From a virus, in IMG/VR virus record IMGVR_UViG_3300015371_000016, positions 13,128 to 77,127 of that record: DNA of 64,000 nucleotides, one strand, 5' to 3'. A model generated the notes under the pieces. The model made no database searches and had not been told where the DNA came from. It saw only the letters and a program-made list of their open reading frames with translations. Position 1 is the stretch's first letter. Each line of letters begins with the position of its first letter. The translations under genes were made by a program, and so were the position numbers. This document shows, one piece after another, positions 13,015 through 26,685 of this stretch.

Positions 13015-13908
13015 TTAGATCAGAATGACAGCGGTGCTGCCGGTGTTGTCCCAGCGGGCAACGTTGTTCACCGCGTCGTAGACGATCACCTTCGAATTGC
13101 CGATGTTCAGCCCGAGAATCTTGCAGGCCAAAGCACCGCCGCCGTAGTTCAGCAAGATGGTGCCGGCGATCGTGCCCCAGGTGCCCTGGTTGGTCGGCAG
13201 GTTGAAAGTAAACACCGTCGAGGAAACCACACTGGCGATCCTCTGCGCGGTATTCAGCAAGCCAACCGGAGCAGTGCCGGAGTTGGTTGCCCCGGAAATC
13301 ACCACAGTGTCGCCGGCCGTCAGTGTCCAGCCGGAAATCGCACCTGAGAGCGTCGCAGTAGCCACGCCGCTCGCTACCGTGATGCCGGTGATGCTCGCGG
13401 TGCCGGCGGATGCCTGATACGGCTGAAGCACCTGAGCAGTCGTGTCCCAGGAGACCTGTGCGTTCTCGACGCCGCCCTCTAGCGAGGCTAGGGCAGGGTC
13501 GGCTTTGACCACGACACGCGCACCGCTGCCGAGCCTATGGAAGTGCACCGACATCAGATTGCCCGCAGTCGGCGCAATATCGCCGCCCGGCGCGACCATC
13601 ATGTTGTGCGCTTGATTGTAGACGCTGAAGCCCTGAATGAGCGCGGTCGTGGTCGCACGTCCCACGATCGGCCCAAGATTGTCCTGCGGCAAGGCGGTCT
13701 GTATCGGCGGATATCCAAGATTGAGGTACAGACCTACGCCGCCCCACATCGGCAGCGTCTCGGCAGCCGCGAGCACACCACCAGACAACGAGAAGCGCGT
13801 CGCAGGATCGTCGAGCGCCACACCTTGAATGTAGCCCTCGCTCTGAACAGAGAAGGTCCCTGCGGCGGTGGTGACCGCCATAGGGTTGAACGAGATGTTA
13901 GCGGCCAT
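13015..13908 (-). CDS. Capsid decoration/cement protein with inserted beta domain
   Basis: GYIQGVALDDPA.R..L.GG, ETLPMWGGV, HRLGSGARV motifs; immediately upstream of MCP. Confidence 0.7.
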   Translation of the reverse strand: MAANISFNPMAVTTAAGTFSVQSEGYIQGVALDDPATRFSLSGGVLAAAETLPMWGGVGLYLNLGYPPIQTALPQDNLGPIVGRATTTALIQGFSVYNQAHNMMVAPGGDIAPTAGNLMSVHFHRLGSGARVVVKADPALASLEGGVENAQVSWDTTAQVLQPYQASAGTASITGITVASGVATATLSGAISGWTLTAGDTVVISGATNSGTAPVGLLNTAQRIASVVSSTVFTFNLPTNQGTWGTIAGTILLNYGGGALACKILGLNIGNSKVIVYDAVNNVARWDNTGSTAVILI

Positions 13909-18746: not shown

Positions 18747-19616
18747 TTAGGCTCTTTCTGCTTGCGCCGCAGCATGCACGACATCCCTAGACGATGGCCC
18801 ATACATATACGGCAGAGGCCCTAGCATAATGTGTCCGGTCTGCGTCGCGTAGCGCACCGCCTGGATGTCGGGATGCGCAGCGAGCCATTCATTGATCGCG
18901 CTGTTGACCGTGCAATAGGCGATTACGTCGTCCACCAGGATGTATTTCGCTCGGCCGAAGCAGAGCGCGATGTCCTTCAGCGCGCCTTCGTGGCTGTGAT
19001 TGCCGTCAATGTGCGCGAGATCGTACGTCCGTGACAAATGCGTCAAAGTGCCGCTATCGCACCGTGCAAGCCTCAGCTCGTGCTCCGGATACTCCTCGTG
19101 CAGCATCCCGTTCGCGTAGGTGATGTCGCCGATATCGATGCCGTGGTAGATCGTGCCGGCAGCACATCCTCGCAGCATCGCCCAGGCTGAGTAGCCGGCA
19201 CGGACGCCGATTTCAAAGATGCTCTTCGGTCGCAATGCAGAGCATAGCTCGGTGTAGAGGCTGTAACTCGGCGGGAAAAGTTCGGTGCGCTGATACTCGT
19301 CGAGAAAGAAGTCGCCTTGAGCGAAAATGCGTTGCGGTAGCGTGCCGTTGCCTTCCCACTCCACCCACGGCACCGCATTGAGCGCGTCCTGCGGCCCGAT
19401 CGTGCGGATGAATACTATCTGCCGTTCGTCGCTGTCCCAGATTTCCAGGTCCATGATCGGATCGCCGTCCGTGATCAGCTCACGAACCTCGAATCCAACA
19501 TTGGACTCTTTGTGCGGAATACGATCGGACGGGCAAAGATAGACCGTGCAATCCTTGCCATTGCCGAGGCGCTGTCCTTGTCGTGCGATCTCGGCGAGGA
19601 TTTCAGCGTCGGTCAC
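18747..19616 (-). CDS. Class I SAM-dependent methyltransferase (Methyltransf_24-like)
   Basis: IFEIGVRAGYS, YHGID, DLAHIDGNHSHEG, ILVDD; GTG start overlaps upstream TGA. Confidence 0.8.
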   Translation of the reverse strand: MTDAEILAEIARQGQRLGNGKDCTVYLCPSDRIPHKESNVGFEVRELITDGDPIMDLEIWDSDERQIVFIRTIGPQDALNAVPWVEWEGNGTLPQRIFAQGDFFLDEYQRTELFPPSYSLYTELCSALRPKSIFEIGVRAGYSAWAMLRGCAAGTIYHGIDIGDITYANGMLHEEYPEHELRLARCDSGTLTHLSRTYDLAHIDGNHSHEGALKDIALCFGRAKYILVDDVIAYCTVNSAINEWLAAHPDIQAVRYATQTGHIMLGPLPYMYGPSSRDVVHAAAQAERA

Positions 19617-21382
19617 GCAGGCAGTTTCTCCCGTGCGGTATCGAGCGCCTGCCTTCCACGTGCTGTCAACATGTCGTCGGGCAGATCGCGTAGGTGGTAG
19701 ATGTAAACGTAATAGCAGCGGCAGTTGTGCGTTACGACTCCCTGGGCTACATACCAATTATTGATAGTTTGGAGATTGTAGACGTGCCCAGACCAAGGCC
19801 GGTTATTGATGTGGACCACATTGCTGCGCTTCGTAGCGAAGGGAAGGCTGTCTATGAAATTGCTGACGCCATTCACGTAAAGCCGACGACCCTCTGGGAG
19901 TGGCACAGGAATAGATGGATCGATCTCGGGCCAAAGTTGCCCCCTAGCCCGCGTATTTGTCTCGACCAACGCGCTATCCGCGCCGCCCATGACAGCGGTG
20001 AAAGTGTGCTCTCGATAGCCAATAGGTTTGGCGTATCGCGTTTGACGATCAAACGTCATATTCAGAAGGCCGGCGGACAACCTCGTACCCAGACTGAGGC
20101 AAATATCCTCATCGCTAGAAATAAGACGCCCGACCAACATAGTGCTGACGCCAAGGCTGCTCATCAAGCTAGACGAGGCAAAAAGGCTTCGCGCACCGAA
20201 TTGCTGCGTAGAGCAAGAAGTCAGTCCAAGATAATCGGGTACGGAGAGGCCGAACTTGTTACCGCTCTTACTGCTAAGAACCTGCGCCCCGACGTACAAC
20301 GGCCTGTAGGTCCATACAATATCGATATCGCTATCGGTACCATCGCCGTGGAATTGCTGGCGCTGCCCACGCCGTGTCTCAGAGAACCCAAATTTCACGA
20401 GCGAGCTATATATTTGCTCAATGCTGGGTATTGCATCGTTATCGTCAGATTCCGTCCCGGCGACCTCTCCGGTAGCCTCGATGACGTGATCGCCATTATT
20501 CAAAGACTGAATAGGACGCCACCCGCACGGCGTAAGAATTGGATGATTTGGTGTCGCGCGGAGCGTTTTACCCGTGTCCGTAATCAGCTCGGTCAATTGA
20601 CCGCTGTACCAGCGCCGATACGCTACTTCCACACCATCAGCGAATGGAAGCCTGGTATCTCCCGGTAAGCAGAATATTTCTTCGCCCGGCTGAGTGATCT
20701 TGTCCGAGAAGCCCGCGTCTCCGGCCCGCATGAAGCCGCGTGTGTGCGCCCAGCTATTCCGGATCGCATACACCTGCTGGTCGCGCTCCTTGTGGTCCTC
20801 GCGATAATCGTAGCCGGACTGGCGCCAGTGTGAGCGCCAGCGTGCGGCAATCGCTCCCGCGTCCTCTGCTAGGATCGCCGAGACCGAAGCATTCAGCTTG
20901 TGACCCTGATCGATGATCACCCGTCGCTCGACGAACGGCAGCGAGGTCAGACCCTTGCGTATCTCCCGCTTCTGCTCTCTGCGGTCGAGCTGGTCGGTGC
21001 CGCCAATCGGGACACTGGTGGCCCAGCCCTGAAAGCGCCTCAGCGTGTCGTTGATCGCCTGCTCACGGTTCAGTTTGATCAGATCGGCTGACGCCTGGAT
21101 GCGTCGGTTTAGTTCCGCCCGCAGCTTCGGCGCTATCCGCTGTACCGTAAAGCGATCTACACCTGGATGGCGGCGCAGCACCGTTCCTTCATCGATCAAT
21201 CGCGTGTAGGTCGAGCCTAGCACCTTGCGCAGCTCTTCGGCCAATGAACGCTCTGACACCATGTCAGTAATGGCCGCCTCGCGGATCAGATCGATCCAAT
21301 ACTGCAAACGCTCTTCGGACTCATAGCCGTGCTCAGCGATATCGTTCAGCGCGTCAGTGACAACCTGGAAGAACGTGGCCAT
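19613..21382 (-). CDS. Head morphogenesis protein (Mu gpF / SPP1 gp7-like) containing an intein
   Basis: IDQGHKL, W.SHWRQ.GYDYREDHKERD, PGEEIF[intein]CRC motifs. Confidence 0.85.
   Translation of the reverse strand: MATFFQVVTDALNDIAEHGYESEERLQYWIDLIREAAITDMVSERSLAEELRKVLGSTYTRLIDEGTVLRRHPGVDRFTVQRIAPKLRAELNRRIQASADLIKLNREQAINDTLRRFQGWATSVPIGGTDQLDRREQKREIRKGLTSLPFVERRVIIDQGHKLNASVSAILAEDAGAIAARWRSHWRQSGYDYREDHKERDQQVYAIRNSWAHTRGFMRAGDAGFSDKITQPGEEIFCLPGDTRLPFADGVEVAYRRWYSGQLTELITDTGKTLRATPNHPILTPCGWRPIQSLNNGDHVIEATGEVAGTESDDNDAIPSIEQIYSSLVKFGFSETRRGQRQQFHGDGTDSDIDIVWTYRPLYVGAQVLSSKSGNKFGLSVPDYLGLTSCSTQQFGARSLFASSSLMSSLGVSTMLVGRLISSDEDICLSLGTRLSAGLLNMTFDRQTRYAKPIGYREHTFTAVMGGADSALVETNTRARGQLWPEIDPSIPVPLPEGRRLYVNGVSNFIDSLPFATKRSNVVHINNRPWSGHVYNLQTINNWYVAQGVVTHNCRCYYVYIYHLRDLPDDMLTARGRQALDTAREKLPA
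19724..20671 (-). mobile_element. Intein, 316 aa, inserted in PGEEIF^CRC
   Basis: Block A CLPGDT, block B LRATPNHPILT..GW, block F/G VYNLQT..WYVAQGVVTHN followed by Cys+1. Confidence 0.9.
19784..20668 (+). CDS. HTH + DUF559/Vsr-like endonuclease nested antisense within the intein
   Basis: GGAG RBS at 19771 before GTG 19784; two HTH-like segments (GKAVYEIADAIHVKPTTL; GESVLSIANRFGVSRLTI); E.EL..L...Q.PVGPYNIDIA...AVE...R..YLLNAGY.IV.V. Confidence 0.75.
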   Translation: MPRPRPVIDVDHIAALRSEGKAVYEIADAIHVKPTTLWEWHRNRWIDLGPKLPPSPRICLDQRAIRAAHDSGESVLSIANRFGVSRLTIKRHIQKAGGQPRTQTEANILIARNKTPDQHSADAKAAHQARRGKKASRTELLRRARSQSKIIGYGEAELVTALTAKNLRPDVQRPVGPYNIDIAIGTIAVELLALPTPCLREPKFHERAIYLLNAGYCIVIVRFRPGDLSGSLDDVIAIIQRLNRTPPARRKNWMIWCRAERFTRVRNQLGQLTAVPAPIRYFHTISEWKPGISR

Positions 21383-21394
21383 TCGTTCCTACTG

Positions 21395-21619
21395 ACGTTG
21401 CGTTGCGTTGCGTTGCGTTGCGCAGCGGTGCGTGGCGGTGCGTGGCGCTGTGGAGAGGCGCGTTGCGGAGCGGAGCGATGCGGAGCGAAGTGGTGCGGTG
21501 CGGTGCGTTGCGTGGCGGTGCGCAGCGATGCAGCGCGGCGAGGTGCGGTGCGCGGCCGGGCGGAGCGTGGCGTGGCGTGGAGAAGCGCGGCGAGGCGTAG
21601 CGGTGCGTGGCGGCGCGAA
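21395..21619 (-). repeat. Phased pentamer array A, 45 units (plus strand GCG-NN; minus strand NN-CGC)
   Basis: Parsed by hand: unbroken 5-nt register, triplet mostly GCG (variants GAG, GTG, GCA, GCC, ACG), variable dinucleotide. Confidence 0.9.
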
Positions 21620-22155: not shown

Positions 22156-22415
22156 GCGTTGCGTTGCGTGGCGGCGAGATGCGAGGCGTAGCGCGGCGTT
22201 GCGAGGAGGCGATCTGCGTTGCGTTGCGTTGAGGCGAGGTGCGAGGCGGTGCGGAGCGTCGCGTTGCGGTGCGCAGCGGCGAGCGGCGCTGAGGGGTGGC
22301 GCGTGGCGATGCGTAGCGTTGCGTGGCGACGAGCTGCGCGGCGGCGAGTTGCGAAGCGTAGCGTGGCGTCGAGCTGCGAAGCGGTGCGTCGCGAAGCGCT
22401 GCGGGGCGTGGCGCC
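22156..22415 (-). repeat. Phased pentamer array B, 52 units
   Basis: Unbroken 5-nt register GCG/GAG/GTG-NN on plus strand, followed by GATAT. Confidence 0.9.
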
Positions 22416-23037: not shown

Positions 23038-23163
23038 GTGACGGGATGCGGTGCGGTGCGACCGAGTCGCGGTGCGGTGCGTTGCGTCGCGTTGCGATGC
23101 GAGGCGTCGAGGTGCGGAGCGATGCGTGGCGTTGCGGTGCGACGAGATGCGATGCGACGCGTC
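23038..23163 (-). repeat. Phased pentamer array C, 25 units with one 1-nt slip at about 23063
   Basis: GCG-NN register on plus strand, followed by GATAT as in array B. Confidence 0.85.
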
Positions 23164-23342: not shown

Positions 23343-23402
23343 GCGAAGCGTTGCGTTGCGTTGCGTGGAGTCGCGCGGTGATGCGTCGCGTGGCGGCGTA
23401 GT
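23343..23402 (-). repeat. Phased pentamer array D, about 12 units
   Basis: GCGAA GCGTT GCGTT GCGTT GCGTG GAGTC GCGCG GTGAT GCGTC GCGTG GCGGC GTAGT. Confidence 0.8.
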
Positions 23403-23419: not shown

Positions 23420-24910
23420 TTATCTCGAACTAGCCAATTTGAAGCTAGGTGGCTTAAGCCCAGCCGCCATTCCGTTGGCGCCCTGGCCGCCCTGGTCCAT
23501 AAGCAAGCTCTTCTGTTGCGCATCCTGCATATCCTGCGCATGCGCGGCAAGGGCCTCGGTATCCAGAGAAAGCGTGCCCTGGAAGATCAGCTCAGCTTTA
23601 TTGACCTCGCTTTGCAGCCACTCGGTCAGCCGAGCCTTATTCTCGGGATCTAAGCTGCCATCGTTCAGTAGCTGGTAAAGCGCCAGCGCCGCCTTCATCT
23701 TTGTATCCTCAACCTTCACCTTCTCGCTGTCGGGCTCTTGGATCAGCGAAGGCCACTCGGCCGTGAAGTTATTCTGCCATGTCTGCAACGCTGAGGCGTA
23801 GCGGACGTTGCCATATTCCTGCGGATACTCCTGCTGGATGCCTCGATAGAATTCTTCGTTCCAGGCACGGTGTTGGACGATGTTGGTCAGCCACTCATAG
23901 ACCGGGTCCATGCTCTCGCGGAAGCCGTCCACAAAGCGAGCAATCACCTTGGCATCCTCGGTGCCCTCGCCGAAGCCCTCGACCATCGTTTCGTTCTCTA
24001 GCAGGATCGCCGGCAGAGCCGCACCGGTCGCTAGATTCTTGAGAATATTATTCCTCGCGAATGTGCCGGCGCCGTCGATATTCGTTAGATTGAGCGAAGA
24101 GATATCTTCGTCCACGCCGATCGACAACACGTTGTCCGTGCGGCCCTCTTGCAGCATCGATCGCTTGCGAGCGAATATGTTGATCATCCCTCTATTAGCG
24201 ATACCACCGGGTGCCTGCATCTTTGCGATCAGCAGTCCCGCTTTCCGGGCGATCATGTCGTCGGTGATCATGCAGTGCAGGTAGCTCTTGAGCGGATAAA
24301 GCACCCGCTGAAAAACCGATCTTCCCGTGAATCCGAACGCGCTGCCGGTATACGATATATACAGCGGCTCCTCGTTCATCACCACACACGTGCGGCTGGG
24401 ATGGTAGGTCTCACCCTGCGTCGTTACCTGCATCGCCTTTTGGAACAGTGGCGAATTCGGGTCCTGGTCGAGCATTAGGCTGCCGGCGGTATTCAGCGGA
24501 TCGAGCACGTTCAGGAATATGCTGTCCGTCGCTAGAGTCCCTACTTCCAACGGTGCCGTCGCTGGCTTGCCCTCGATGCCTAGCACCACCGAAGAAAGGC
24601 CGTAGATGCGCGACTGCTTGATGACGTTCGCGATGACCTTGTCGGCCTTCATCGCACGCCACTGTTTCTGGAATGCCTCGGCTACTCGCTCGGGCGCGCC
24701 TGAGACGGTGATCTCTCGGTCCTGGCTCTGTGCGAGCTGGATCGGCGCTTCGACCATCTTGGCGCCGATCGGATGATACAGATAGATCAGCTTGCAGAGC
24801 TGGTAGCTCACGTCGCTGCCGGGCAGGATATCGTCAGCGGTCAGTATCTGCATCAGCGCCGGCCCGACATTGGAGCCGACGACCGAGATCGATGCTCCGC
24901 TACCGCTCAT
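23420..24910 (-). CDS. Portal protein (DUF1073-like)
   Basis: YQLCKLIYLYHPIGAKM, VLDPLNTAGS, YHPSRT, FGFTGRSV, GFGEGTED motifs; follows TerL. Confidence 0.85.
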   Translation of the reverse strand: MSGSGASISVVGSNVGPALMQILTADDILPGSDVSYQLCKLIYLYHPIGAKMVEAPIQLAQSQDREITVSGAPERVAEAFQKQWRAMKADKVIANVIKQSRIYGLSSVVLGIEGKPATAPLEVGTLATDSIFLNVLDPLNTAGSLMLDQDPNSPLFQKAMQVTTQGETYHPSRTCVVMNEEPLYISYTGSAFGFTGRSVFQRVLYPLKSYLHCMITDDMIARKAGLLIAKMQAPGGIANRGMINIFARKRSMLQEGRTDNVLSIGVDEDISSLNLTNIDGAGTFARNNILKNLATGAALPAILLENETMVEGFGEGTEDAKVIARFVDGFRESMDPVYEWLTNIVQHRAWNEEFYRGIQQEYPQEYGNVRYASALQTWQNNFTAEWPSLIQEPDSEKVKVEDTKMKAALALYQLLNDGSLDPENKARLTEWLQSEVNKAELIFQGTLSLDTEALAAHAQDMQDAQQKSLLMDQGGQGANGMAAGLKPPSFKLASSR

Positions 24911-24911
24911 G

Positions 24912-26249
24912 TCAGAACCCCTTAGCGTCACCCAGCGCGCAGGCTATGCCGTAGCAAAAAGCGTCGAGCAGATCGTCTTCGCGATTGTCGATCCCTACTC
25001 TGTAACCGACCACTTGGCCGAGAAGATGGTTCCGGCTGGTCTCATTATATATGAGTGTGCGATCATAGGCCGGGCCGGATATCTTGACCTCGCCACGGTG
25101 CACGTAGCCGCTCACTGAGACCGCCCTGGCGTCCTTCCCTAGTGCCACAAGCTGGCTGTCGATCGGATCGGCCGGCAGACCTCGGCGCCTTGCTTGCTGG
25201 AGCAGGATCGTGCCTGAGCCCTTGTCCTCGATGTAAGCGCCCGTCGCACCGAAGCGCGCGTGGCACTGTCTCGCCAGCTCTTCCATGCGCTGGTAGACAC
25301 CCGGCAGCCAGACTTCGAGCAGCGAGCCTTCCACCTTAATAATATCGTAGTCCAGGATTATCAGCGGCGTGCCGACATGCTGGCTGCGAGCCCAGTAGAT
25401 CACCGCTGTGCCGTCGTGCTGGCTTCTGTCCTTCAGCGCGGTATCGATCGTGCAGAAGACCAGATCACAGAAGGACGGGTAATCGACCGGCCTGTCGTTA
25501 TCGAGCAGCGCAGGCAGCGGAAAGAACGCTGCTCCGCTAAAGTCCACGAACTCAGCGAGGTACTCTTGCTGATAGACCAGCGGATGCGTCTCCGCCTCGA
25601 TCTGCCGAAGCTCCTCTCTGGGCATGTAGGGATTAGCGCTGGTAGGCGCGTGATACTCGACGAAGCCCATGTCCGCGTTATTGCAGAGCTGCCAAAGGAA
25701 ATTGTCTGGATCGATCCCGTTGGTGTTCGACAGCGCGATACAAGAACCGCGATAGTCCACTAGGGTCGGCCGTATCGCCTTCCGCCAAATGTCCCTCATG
25801 TTCGACTTGGCGAAGGCCGCTTCGTCGATGACGACCTGATGGTAGCGTCGTGACCGGCCCGCCCGCTCATTCTCTAGCGACCAGAAATCTATGCGGCCGC
25901 CCGCATTGGTCCTGATCAGTCCGTCGTTCCTCGATGCCCTGGTGACACAGGGAGCCAACATTGTCGCCAGCTCAGAATATGCCTCGGCGATGAACTTATA
26001 CTCCGGCGCGAACCATCCGACGAATTTACCGCGCAAGGCTGCGTCGGCCGCTATCGTCTGTCCTAATAGGGTCTTGCCCCACCGCCTGCCGCATCGGACG
26101 ACCTTGAACCTCCCTGGCATTTGGAAGGCACGAATCTGATCTTCGTGAAGGACGGGCAAATATACTTCCCGAGTGGAACCGTCCGAGCTGCTGCCGCCTC
26201 TGTTGTATGGTAGCTCAACTCGGAAGACTTGCTCCGTTTCCTCGGTCAT
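24912..26249 (-). CDS. terL: Terminase large subunit
   Basis: Walker A RCGRRWGKT, Walker B VVIDEAA, nuclease IDTA..DG, IEDKGSG, DDLLDA. Confidence 0.92.
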   Translation of the reverse strand: MTEETEQVFRVELPYNRGGSSSDGSTREVYLPVLHEDQIRAFQMPGRFKVVRCGRRWGKTLLGQTIAADAALRGKFVGWFAPEYKFIAEAYSELATMLAPCVTRASRNDGLIRTNAGGRIDFWSLENERAGRSRRYHQVVIDEAAFAKSNMRDIWRKAIRPTLVDYRGSCIALSNTNGIDPDNFLWQLCNNADMGFVEYHAPTSANPYMPREELRQIEAETHPLVYQQEYLAEFVDFSGAAFFPLPALLDNDRPVDYPSFCDLVFCTIDTALKDRSQHDGTAVIYWARSQHVGTPLIILDYDIIKVEGSLLEVWLPGVYQRMEELARQCHARFGATGAYIEDKGSGTILLQQARRRGLPADPIDSQLVALGKDARAVSVSGYVHRGEVKISGPAYDRTLIYNETSRNHLLGQVVGYRVGIDNREDDLLDAFCYGIACALGDAKGF

Positions 26250-26685
26250 GTCCGTTGCTCTGCTCTTCTTCCTCTTCGTCGGCACCGATCTGCGGCTGGT
26301 GATAGACCGTAGCCGGCAGACCGCCATGGATCACGATCGTCGTGGTTCCGGGCTGGCTCGATCCTAACGGTAGGCTAGGATCGTCGGACACTGGCTGCAC
26401 CTTCCATTCCGGCCCACCGAACAGACACATCCAGTATTTAATCGCATTTACGTTGCCGGATATACCTGCCCGGATCAAGGCAGCGATCAGCGTCGCTTTG
26501 ACGGTCTCCCTTCCGCCGTTCAAGTCCTCTCGGAAGTATTTATAGAGCGTCTTCACCGTGATGCCGCCAGACGATCTGCGCACCACATTAGCGATCACGC
26601 CATGGCTTATTCCGTGCGACGATAGCGTCTGCACCAAAAATCGTTCTTCTGGTGTGGGCTCGAAAGTAACTCCGCGACGGGCCAT
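26215..26685 (-). CDS. terS: Terminase small subunit
   Basis: HTH (GISHGVIA..TLYKYFREDL), GNVNAIKYW; directly upstream of terL. Confidence 0.75.
   Translation of the reverse strand: MARRGVTFEPTPEERFLVQTLSSHGISHGVIANVVRRSSGGITVKTLYKYFREDLNGGRETVKATLIAALIRAGISGNVNAIKYWMCLFGGPEWKVQPVSDDPSLPLGSSQPGTTTIVIHGGLPATVYHQPQIGADEEEEEQSNGHDRGNGASLPS

Follow-up and report, generated by a model that had tools for sequence, protein, structure and literature searches.

The window analysed here is a stretch of 64,000 nucleotides (nt) that occupies positions 13,128 to 77,127 of the IMG/VR virus record IMGVR_UViG_3300015371_000016 (77,127 bases in all, estimated to be 93% complete), and its subject is a MuF-like head-morphogenesis gene on the minus strand that encloses an intein of 316 amino acids (aa). 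The same stretch of DNA carries on the opposite strand a gene of 294 codons, nested in the intein, and the mobility enzyme of this contiguous class 1 intein is very probably the separate protein of that gene, encoded in shared triplets. The features of the locus are listed below by position in the window, with the splice junctions taken from intein-free relatives.

19613-21382, minus: MuF-like head-morphogenesis (minor head) gene, 589-aa precursor including the intein
20672-21382, minus: N-extein, 237 aa, with PGEEIF at its C-terminus
19724-20671, minus: class 1 intein, 316 aa, CLPGDT...VVTHN followed by CRC, with Cys1, block B T40..H43, a C-terminal His-Asn and a Cys at +1
19613-19723, minus: C-extein (CRCYYVYIYHLRDLP..., 36 aa) and stop codon
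19877-20281, minus: low-confidence intein linker, residues 131-265, pLDDT (predicted local distance difference test) 34-52 and mostly below 50, antisense to the DNA-binding region of the predicted endonuclease
19784-20668, plus: antisense homing-endonuclease gene (predicted), 294 aa and TAA, nested in the intein and codon-aligned with it
19771-19786, plus: putative translation start of this gene, GGAG (19771-19774), 9-nt spacer and GTG (19784-19786), the reverse complement of the block F codons from His to Leu-Gln
19817-19912, plus: first helix-turn-helix (HTH), residues about 12-43, Pfam HTH_23 at 28.4 bits against a cut-off of 24.6, helices 10-42 in the model
19955-20068, plus: second HTH, residues about 58-95, Pfam HTH_38 at 40.0 bits against a cut-off of 27
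20228-20518, plus: Vsr/DUF559-like nuclease core, residues about 149-245, with invariant E155 (20246-20248), D181 (20324-20326) and E190 (20351-20353)
20342-20353, both strands: interlocked motif, endonuclease I187-A188-V189-E190 (plus) and intein F107-H108-G109-D110 (minus)
20537-20647, plus: C-terminal beta-hairpin, residues 252-288, pLDDT about 97, antisense to intein blocks A and B

The MuF-like gene matched head and head-morphogenesis proteins of the PHROG collection (phrog_15127, E 1.2e-48; phrog_324, E 1e-19). The nearest IMG/VR relatives of its extein showed identities of 39-73%, and 20 of these 25 had no intein, being proteins of 265-284 aa with PGE(L/F)(V/I)F contiguous with CRC. The splice junctions are fixed because the intein-free relatives join F directly to CRC, and the 316-aa insert can accordingly be identified as an intein located immediately ahead of the first Cys of CRC. 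The insertion is in frame, at a conserved site of a host protein with intein-free homologues, and the Hint fold of a class 1 intein was recovered, so that the intein read in an earlier note on this DNA, from Cys1 to His-Asn and then Cys, was borne out by the sequence. Cys1 is present in the window and in 74 of 74 family members, T40 and H43 of block B are invariant (61 sequences), and the terminal Asn and the Cys at +1 are each found in 66 of 66 family inteins; at the penultimate position 33 have His and 25 have Ser, and the window reads THN and then C. The AlphaFold model of the intein, built on an alignment of 61 sequences, is confident for residues 1-72, 80-130 and 266-316, and a domain search found no endonuclease domain in the intein frame.

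The plus-strand frame is open from 19694 to 20668, with its start placed at GTG 19784 from the alignment of the family. The codon register is identical on both strands (19613 and 19694 each leave a remainder of 2 on division by 3). The TAA stop, at 20666-20668, pairs with intein codon 2 (TTA), and the next triplet, 20669-20671, with the codon of Cys1. The nested, codon-aligned frame of 294 aa, preceded by GGAG and ending opposite intein codon 2, was thus found just as the earlier note had described it. This antisense register is workable because each gene need avoid only TTA, CTA and TCA for the other to stay open.

Open frames and selection on both strands

Relatives of the endonuclease are encoded in at least 403 IMG/VR loci, and at each of the 83 loci examined the open reading frame (ORF) was nested and codon-aligned in an opposite-strand ORF of 470-1140 aa; a locus in an Anaerolineae metagenome-assembled genome (MAG) showed the identical antisense, codon-aligned layout in a MuF intein, giving 84 of 84 in total. 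Two of the checks suggested in the earlier note, a search for related inteins with open antisense frames and a comparison of selection on each strand, spoke for the antisense gene. The overlap in the window contains no stop on either strand, as had been claimed, against 14.4 (plus) and 9.4 (minus) expected from the codon usage of the window's own exteins, and the 65 unique inteins of the family contain none in either frame, against 454.7 (plus) and 354.3 (intein) expected from extein codon usage.

Differential conservation was also observed along the overlap. Over plus-frame codons 40-200 the endonuclease frame shows identities of 0.21-0.39 and the intein frame identities of 0.12-0.25, with corresponding values of 0.21-0.36 and 0.12-0.20 for linker residues 131-265, whereas the splicing blocks show the reverse, with 0.31-0.54 in the intein frame and 0.19-0.31 in the endonuclease frame; the profile was nearly unchanged whichever protein guided the alignment. 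Substitutions counted in 10 independent pairs followed the same division: of the 780 changed codons in the centre, 315 keep the amino acid of the endonuclease and 102 that of the intein, as compared with 58 and 113 of 277 in the N-terminal splicing domain and 30 and 59 of 146 in the C-terminal splicing domain. The changes in the centre thus tend to be silent for the endonuclease and those in the splicing blocks silent for the intein, and both frames are kept open and under purifying selection.

These patterns bear on two other explanations of the overlap. The plus-strand ORF might be a chance open frame whose conservation mirrors selection on the intein, since an antisense frame in codon register is the most easily kept open and conservation leaks between frames. 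This explanation is refuted: conservation in the centre is roughly twofold higher for the plus frame than for the intein frame, most changes there are silent in the plus frame, none of the 454.7 expected plus-frame stops is seen, and the product has Pfam HTH domains above the cut-off and an AlphaFold model with a mean pLDDT of 93.8 and a Vsr fold. The family, Pfam and model evidence together support what the earlier note had proposed, an inverted endonuclease that is a genuine, conserved and separately initiated gene within the intein. Alternatively, the MuF gene could be fractured, with a split intein, a free-standing endonuclease gene between the half genes and an intein frame that is not read through, and it was in this arrangement that Vsr-like endonucleases were first linked to inteins (PMC2677866). 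For the present family this is likewise refuted, as the intein is a single open frame throughout, lacking every one of the 354.3 stops expected in the 65 unique members; no restart signals are needed, and F88 and FHGD of the intein frame are selected within the overlap.

Interlocked motifs and start signals

Endonuclease residues of about 167-294 are antisense to intein residues 1-130, and the nuclease domain consequently lies opposite folded, selected parts of the intein with which its motifs interlock; the idea that the intein serves as a neutral shelter for the endonuclease was therefore not upheld. The suggestion that the centre of the intein reads like antisense translation held in kind and not in extent, as it applies to about 135 aa (residues 131-265) instead of about 200, residues 80-130 being modelled confidently and conserved in the intein frame. 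Within the linker of residues 131-265, the absence of stop codons is the sole visible constraint on the intein frame. Intein residues 80-130 (20282-20434, minus) have a pLDDT of 94-97 and contain F88 and FHGD (107-110) of the intein frame, and the approximately 110 residues that can be aligned to known inteins probably exclude this segment.

Such interlocking was observed where the putative catalytic motif AVE of the endonuclease lies opposite FHGD of the intein. The synonymous choices at this motif are near-fixed (GAA in 61/65, GTG in 56/59, GCC in 60/62 and a third base C in 65/65; p 3e-9 to 3e-34, values that are overstated here and in the other codon-usage tests below, which treat relatives as independent, although synonymous sites should be saturated at protein identities of 25-50%), unlike those at Y178, N179, D181 and Q172 of the endonuclease, where both synonymous codons are used freely. 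Moreover, D110 of the intein is invariant where the endonuclease alternates between I and V, and F88 of the intein is retained where the endonuclease alternates between K and E. In block B, the I-R-C motif of the endonuclease is the complement of T-P-N of the intein, and the codon of intein Thr40 is ACA in 49 of 65 members against a baseline of 16% (p 4e-26), which gives Cys257 of the endonuclease.

Similarly, intein block F (GHVYNLQT), read as its reverse complement, supplies the start of the endonuclease gene. The His of block F is encoded by CAT in 49 of 53 members, which yields ATG, and by CAC in the remaining 4, which yields GTG as in the window; in exteins CAT makes up 34% (p 1e-18). The Leu is encoded by CTC in 33 of 51 members as compared with 26% in exteins (p 5e-9), and this codon supplies the GAG of GGAG at a spacing of 9 nt; a Shine-Dalgarno-like motif was found in 33 of 53 family members. 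On balance these observations favour, by a modest degree, an endonuclease gene and intein that form a long co-evolved interlocked unit over an endonuclease that invaded a neutral linker recently, with about 130 codons encoding two folded, separately selected protein parts on opposite strands. Leakage of covariation from one frame to the other could, however, account for part of the confidence of the models in the two mirrored segments.

The antisense protein and the mobility of the element

From its sequence and model, the endonuclease is predicted to combine a bipartite HTH region for DNA binding with a nuclease domain of the Vsr/DUF559-like (EDxHD-related) type and a beta-hairpin at the C-terminus. 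The two HTH-like segments that had been pointed out beforehand both exceed their Pfam gathering scores (HTH_38, 40.0 bits; HTH_23, 28.4 bits), and Foldseek aligned the N-terminal part only weakly with the bipartite DNA-binding domains of the Tc3 transposase and of SETMAR (E 0.03-0.04, root-mean-square deviation about 12, poor superposition). The DUF559/Vsr-like domain, also pointed out beforehand, was recovered by a search with the family profile, which matched the DUF559 protein 3hrl at E 1.1e-6 and 3r3p at E 0.0064, and by the predicted Vsr-like fold of the antisense product, in which the Vsr alignment reaches residue 289. With the single endonuclease sequence, neither Pfam Vsr (PF03852) nor DUF559 (PF04480) was listed at E <= 1, and a search of solved structures gave nothing useful; the Vsr/DUF559 homology is visible at the profile level and in the fold only. 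A homodimer prediction with two copies of the nuclease domain (residues 147-294) returned no verdict, at a score of 0.00.

The EDxHD motif of I-Bth0305I consists of Glu170, Asp196, His213 and Asp222 (PMC3239194). To judge from the alignments, the first Glu (E155) and the first Asp (D181) of the EDxHD enzymes are conserved in the present family, whereas the His general base and the last Asp appear unconserved, leaving E-D-x-H-D incomplete, and E190 seems to lie at the position where the same paper notes a conserved acidic residue. The profile alignment to 3hrl places no conserved His or Asp opposite DG..H and no conserved Asp before R207. The earlier note had remarked that DG..H is missing after AVE and had supposed that the nuclease may be degenerate; the absence stands, and is no mark of decay in the window copy, as the trait belongs to the whole family, in which E155, Q172, Y178, N179, D181 and E190 are invariant in 67 sequences.

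The following course of events would account for these features. The MuF-like gene is interrupted just before the first Cys of CRC, and the intein would remove itself after translation. In a co-infecting phage, the enzyme made from the opposite strand would cleave MuF alleles without an intein near ...GAAGAAATATTC|TGCCGCTGC..., and recombinational repair would then copy in the intein and the endonuclease together. For transcription and translation of the antisense gene, for DNA cleavage and for splicing we rely on inference throughout. The element is sporadic among close MuF relatives, as seen in the 20 of 25 nearest extein relatives that are intein-free, and in some pairs of loci the endonucleases are far more alike than the exteins, with identities of 0.55 and 0.29 for L043/L044 and of 0.59 and 0.37 for L026/L033, which fits horizontal transfer as far as sequence comparison can indicate.

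Several results weigh against this account. Neither the DG..H element nor the last Asp of the EDxHD/Vsr site was found anywhere in the endonuclease family, and catalysis may be altered or absent. As regards the expression apart from the late gene, possibly timed to replication, that the earlier note had supposed, no sigma-70-like promoter was detected in a scan of 19300-21000 and no RNA runs containing sequence of the window were found. No intein-free allele of the window phage was seen in its rhizosphere metagenomes, where cover is low; the overstated p-values of the codon-usage tests belong here as well. The phage is present in rhizosphere metagenomes, and four rhizosphere DNA runs gave short contigs of low depth identical to the window, with no joint across the intein and no variant.

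The family-wide absence of DG..H and of the last Asp also lends some weight to an antisense protein that is maintained without cutting, as a site-specific DNA-binding protein on a Vsr-like scaffold, for example a late-gene regulator or a recombination aid, and the two HTH domains are indeed the top-scoring sequence features of the protein. This alternative is nevertheless considered unlikely. E155, D181 and E190 occupy the expected metal-binding positions and are invariant, together with Q172, Y178 and N179, in sequences that are otherwise divergent, which would be unexpected for a mere scaffold, and both the patchiness among close MuF relatives and the mismatch between endonuclease and extein identities fit ongoing homing. 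A mobility endonuclease encoded antisense in the intein thus remains the preferred reading.

Known systems, distribution and neighbouring genes

Canonical bifunctional inteins, such as PI-SceI and PI-PfuI, carry an in-frame LAGLIDADG or HNH domain. The present element resembles them in combining a Hint domain with a homing endonuclease in a single mobile unit, inserted at a conserved position in an essential gene, and differs in that the endonuclease would be a separate polypeptide from the other strand, with splicing and cutting uncoupled at the protein level. Antisense LAGLIDADG endonucleases in the inteins of Synechocystis DnaX and a Chloroflexus SpoVR-like protein (Gorbalenya 1998 and Gogarten 2002, as cited in bioRxiv 10.1101/2025.01.02.630785) are similar, so far as those citations describe them, in lying opposite a full intein, and different in nuclease family and host genes.

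The nearest precedent is found in the same preprint (Gosselin, Arsenault, Gogarten; bioRxiv 10.1101/2025.01.02.630785), which describes VSR-like endonucleases encoded antisense to full inteins in actinophage genes, with minor capsid proteins among the four host gene types listed. Shared with that system are the contiguous intein, the endonuclease ORF antisense within it, the Vsr-like fold of the product, an intein frame without recognisable structure over the endonuclease region, and the MuF host type, and Gordonia phages (e.g., Vivi2) within the scope of its PhagesDB survey are direct relatives of the window protein. Further relatives lie in the MuF genes of the Gordonia actinophages Fosterous and Malisha; as these are phages of the type surveyed in the preprint, the window element belongs to a known arrangement. 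The layout is already published as a 2025 preprint, to which the window element adds a relative, and the novelty implied by the earlier note is not upheld. On the other hand, the window copy lies in an uncultured phage of rhizosphere metagenomes and not in an actinophage, the family reaches phages of Aggregatibacter, Klebsiella, Vibrio and Edwardsiella and hundreds of metagenome loci, and the overlap with selected intein sequence here takes in the entire nuclease domain, with the start signals in block F. The text of the preprint that was searched contains no residue-level double constraint and does not mention the start codon, the ribosome site or block F, and it is solely in the interlocked motifs and start signals that the present results may go beyond what is published.

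I-Bth0305I (PMC3239194) and the endonucleases of fractured genes (PMC2677866) share with the present protein a C-terminal Vsr-like domain, an N-terminal DNA-binding region and an association with phage introns or inteins. In contrast to I-Bth0305I, the predicted DNA binding is of the HTH_23/HTH_38 type, with no NUMOD repeats by Pfam, and in contrast to both, the gene is antisense in a contiguous intein and not in an intron or between the halves of a split intein. The fractured gene with a split intein (Dassa et al. 2009) also differs from the one open frame that runs through the intein in 65 of 65 unique members, and the antisense arrangement is unmentioned both in that paper and in the TliVMA intein paper.

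The family is large and nameless. The endonuclease profile matched 1,811 representative clusters at E <= 1e-30, and ten database matches that were looked up bore 'hypothetical protein' as their sole name. In phage genomes, tblastn placed the endonuclease antisense to annotated MuF or head genes of Aaphi23, Klebsiella phage KpTDp1 and Gordonia phage Vivi2, with both strands open and the codon phase matching in 3 of 3; in these three genomes the antisense ORF of 285-338 aa is unannotated, the enclosing head or MuF gene being the only one annotated. No free-standing relative of the endonuclease was found among the best 150 matches listed, and the representative P0012, which occurs on long contigs and has no IMG/VR relative, gave as its sole genome match the Anaerolineae MAG, where it is again antisense in a MuF intein. 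The family loci L004-L083 fall into two size classes, inteins of about 316-329 aa with a two-HTH endonuclease and inteins of about 262-294 aa, in which the tblastn match begins at query residue 45-75 or so and the endonuclease appears to be without the first HTH. In addition, some IMG/VR MuF genes (L027/L028 and L048/L097) carry a related intein two codons further on, at FCR|C, before the second Cys of CRC; two adjacent insertion points are therefore used by the intein family, with a Cys at +1 of each.

The element would represent a selfish element that packs two working proteins into shared triplets on opposite strands and uncouples expression of the endonuclease from that of the late head gene, and it belongs to a large unnamed gene family of at least 1,800 clusters at 50% identity that gene callers have missed. 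It offers a natural test case for the limits of antisense double coding, while the practical gain from the window itself is small, since the layout is already in the preprint.

The MuF-like gene stands in a head module with the minus-strand order large terminase, portal, two small ORFs, MuF-like gene and methyltransferase-like ORF, of which two genes lie upstream of MuF on the same strand:

24912-26327, minus: large terminase gene
23420-24931, minus: portal gene

Directly downstream of MuF, an ORF at 18747-19610 (minus) encodes a Methyltransf_24-type S-adenosylmethionine methyltransferase (Pfam E 1.2e-8). Four GCGNN arrays with a strict period of 5 nt (e.g., GCGTTGCGTTGCG...) were observed on the plus strand at 21400-21617, 22181-22413, 23069-23141 and 23343-23365, with 32 matches of the pattern against 0.02 expected; they are located in gaps among the listed head-module ORFs, one of them immediately upstream of the MuF start.

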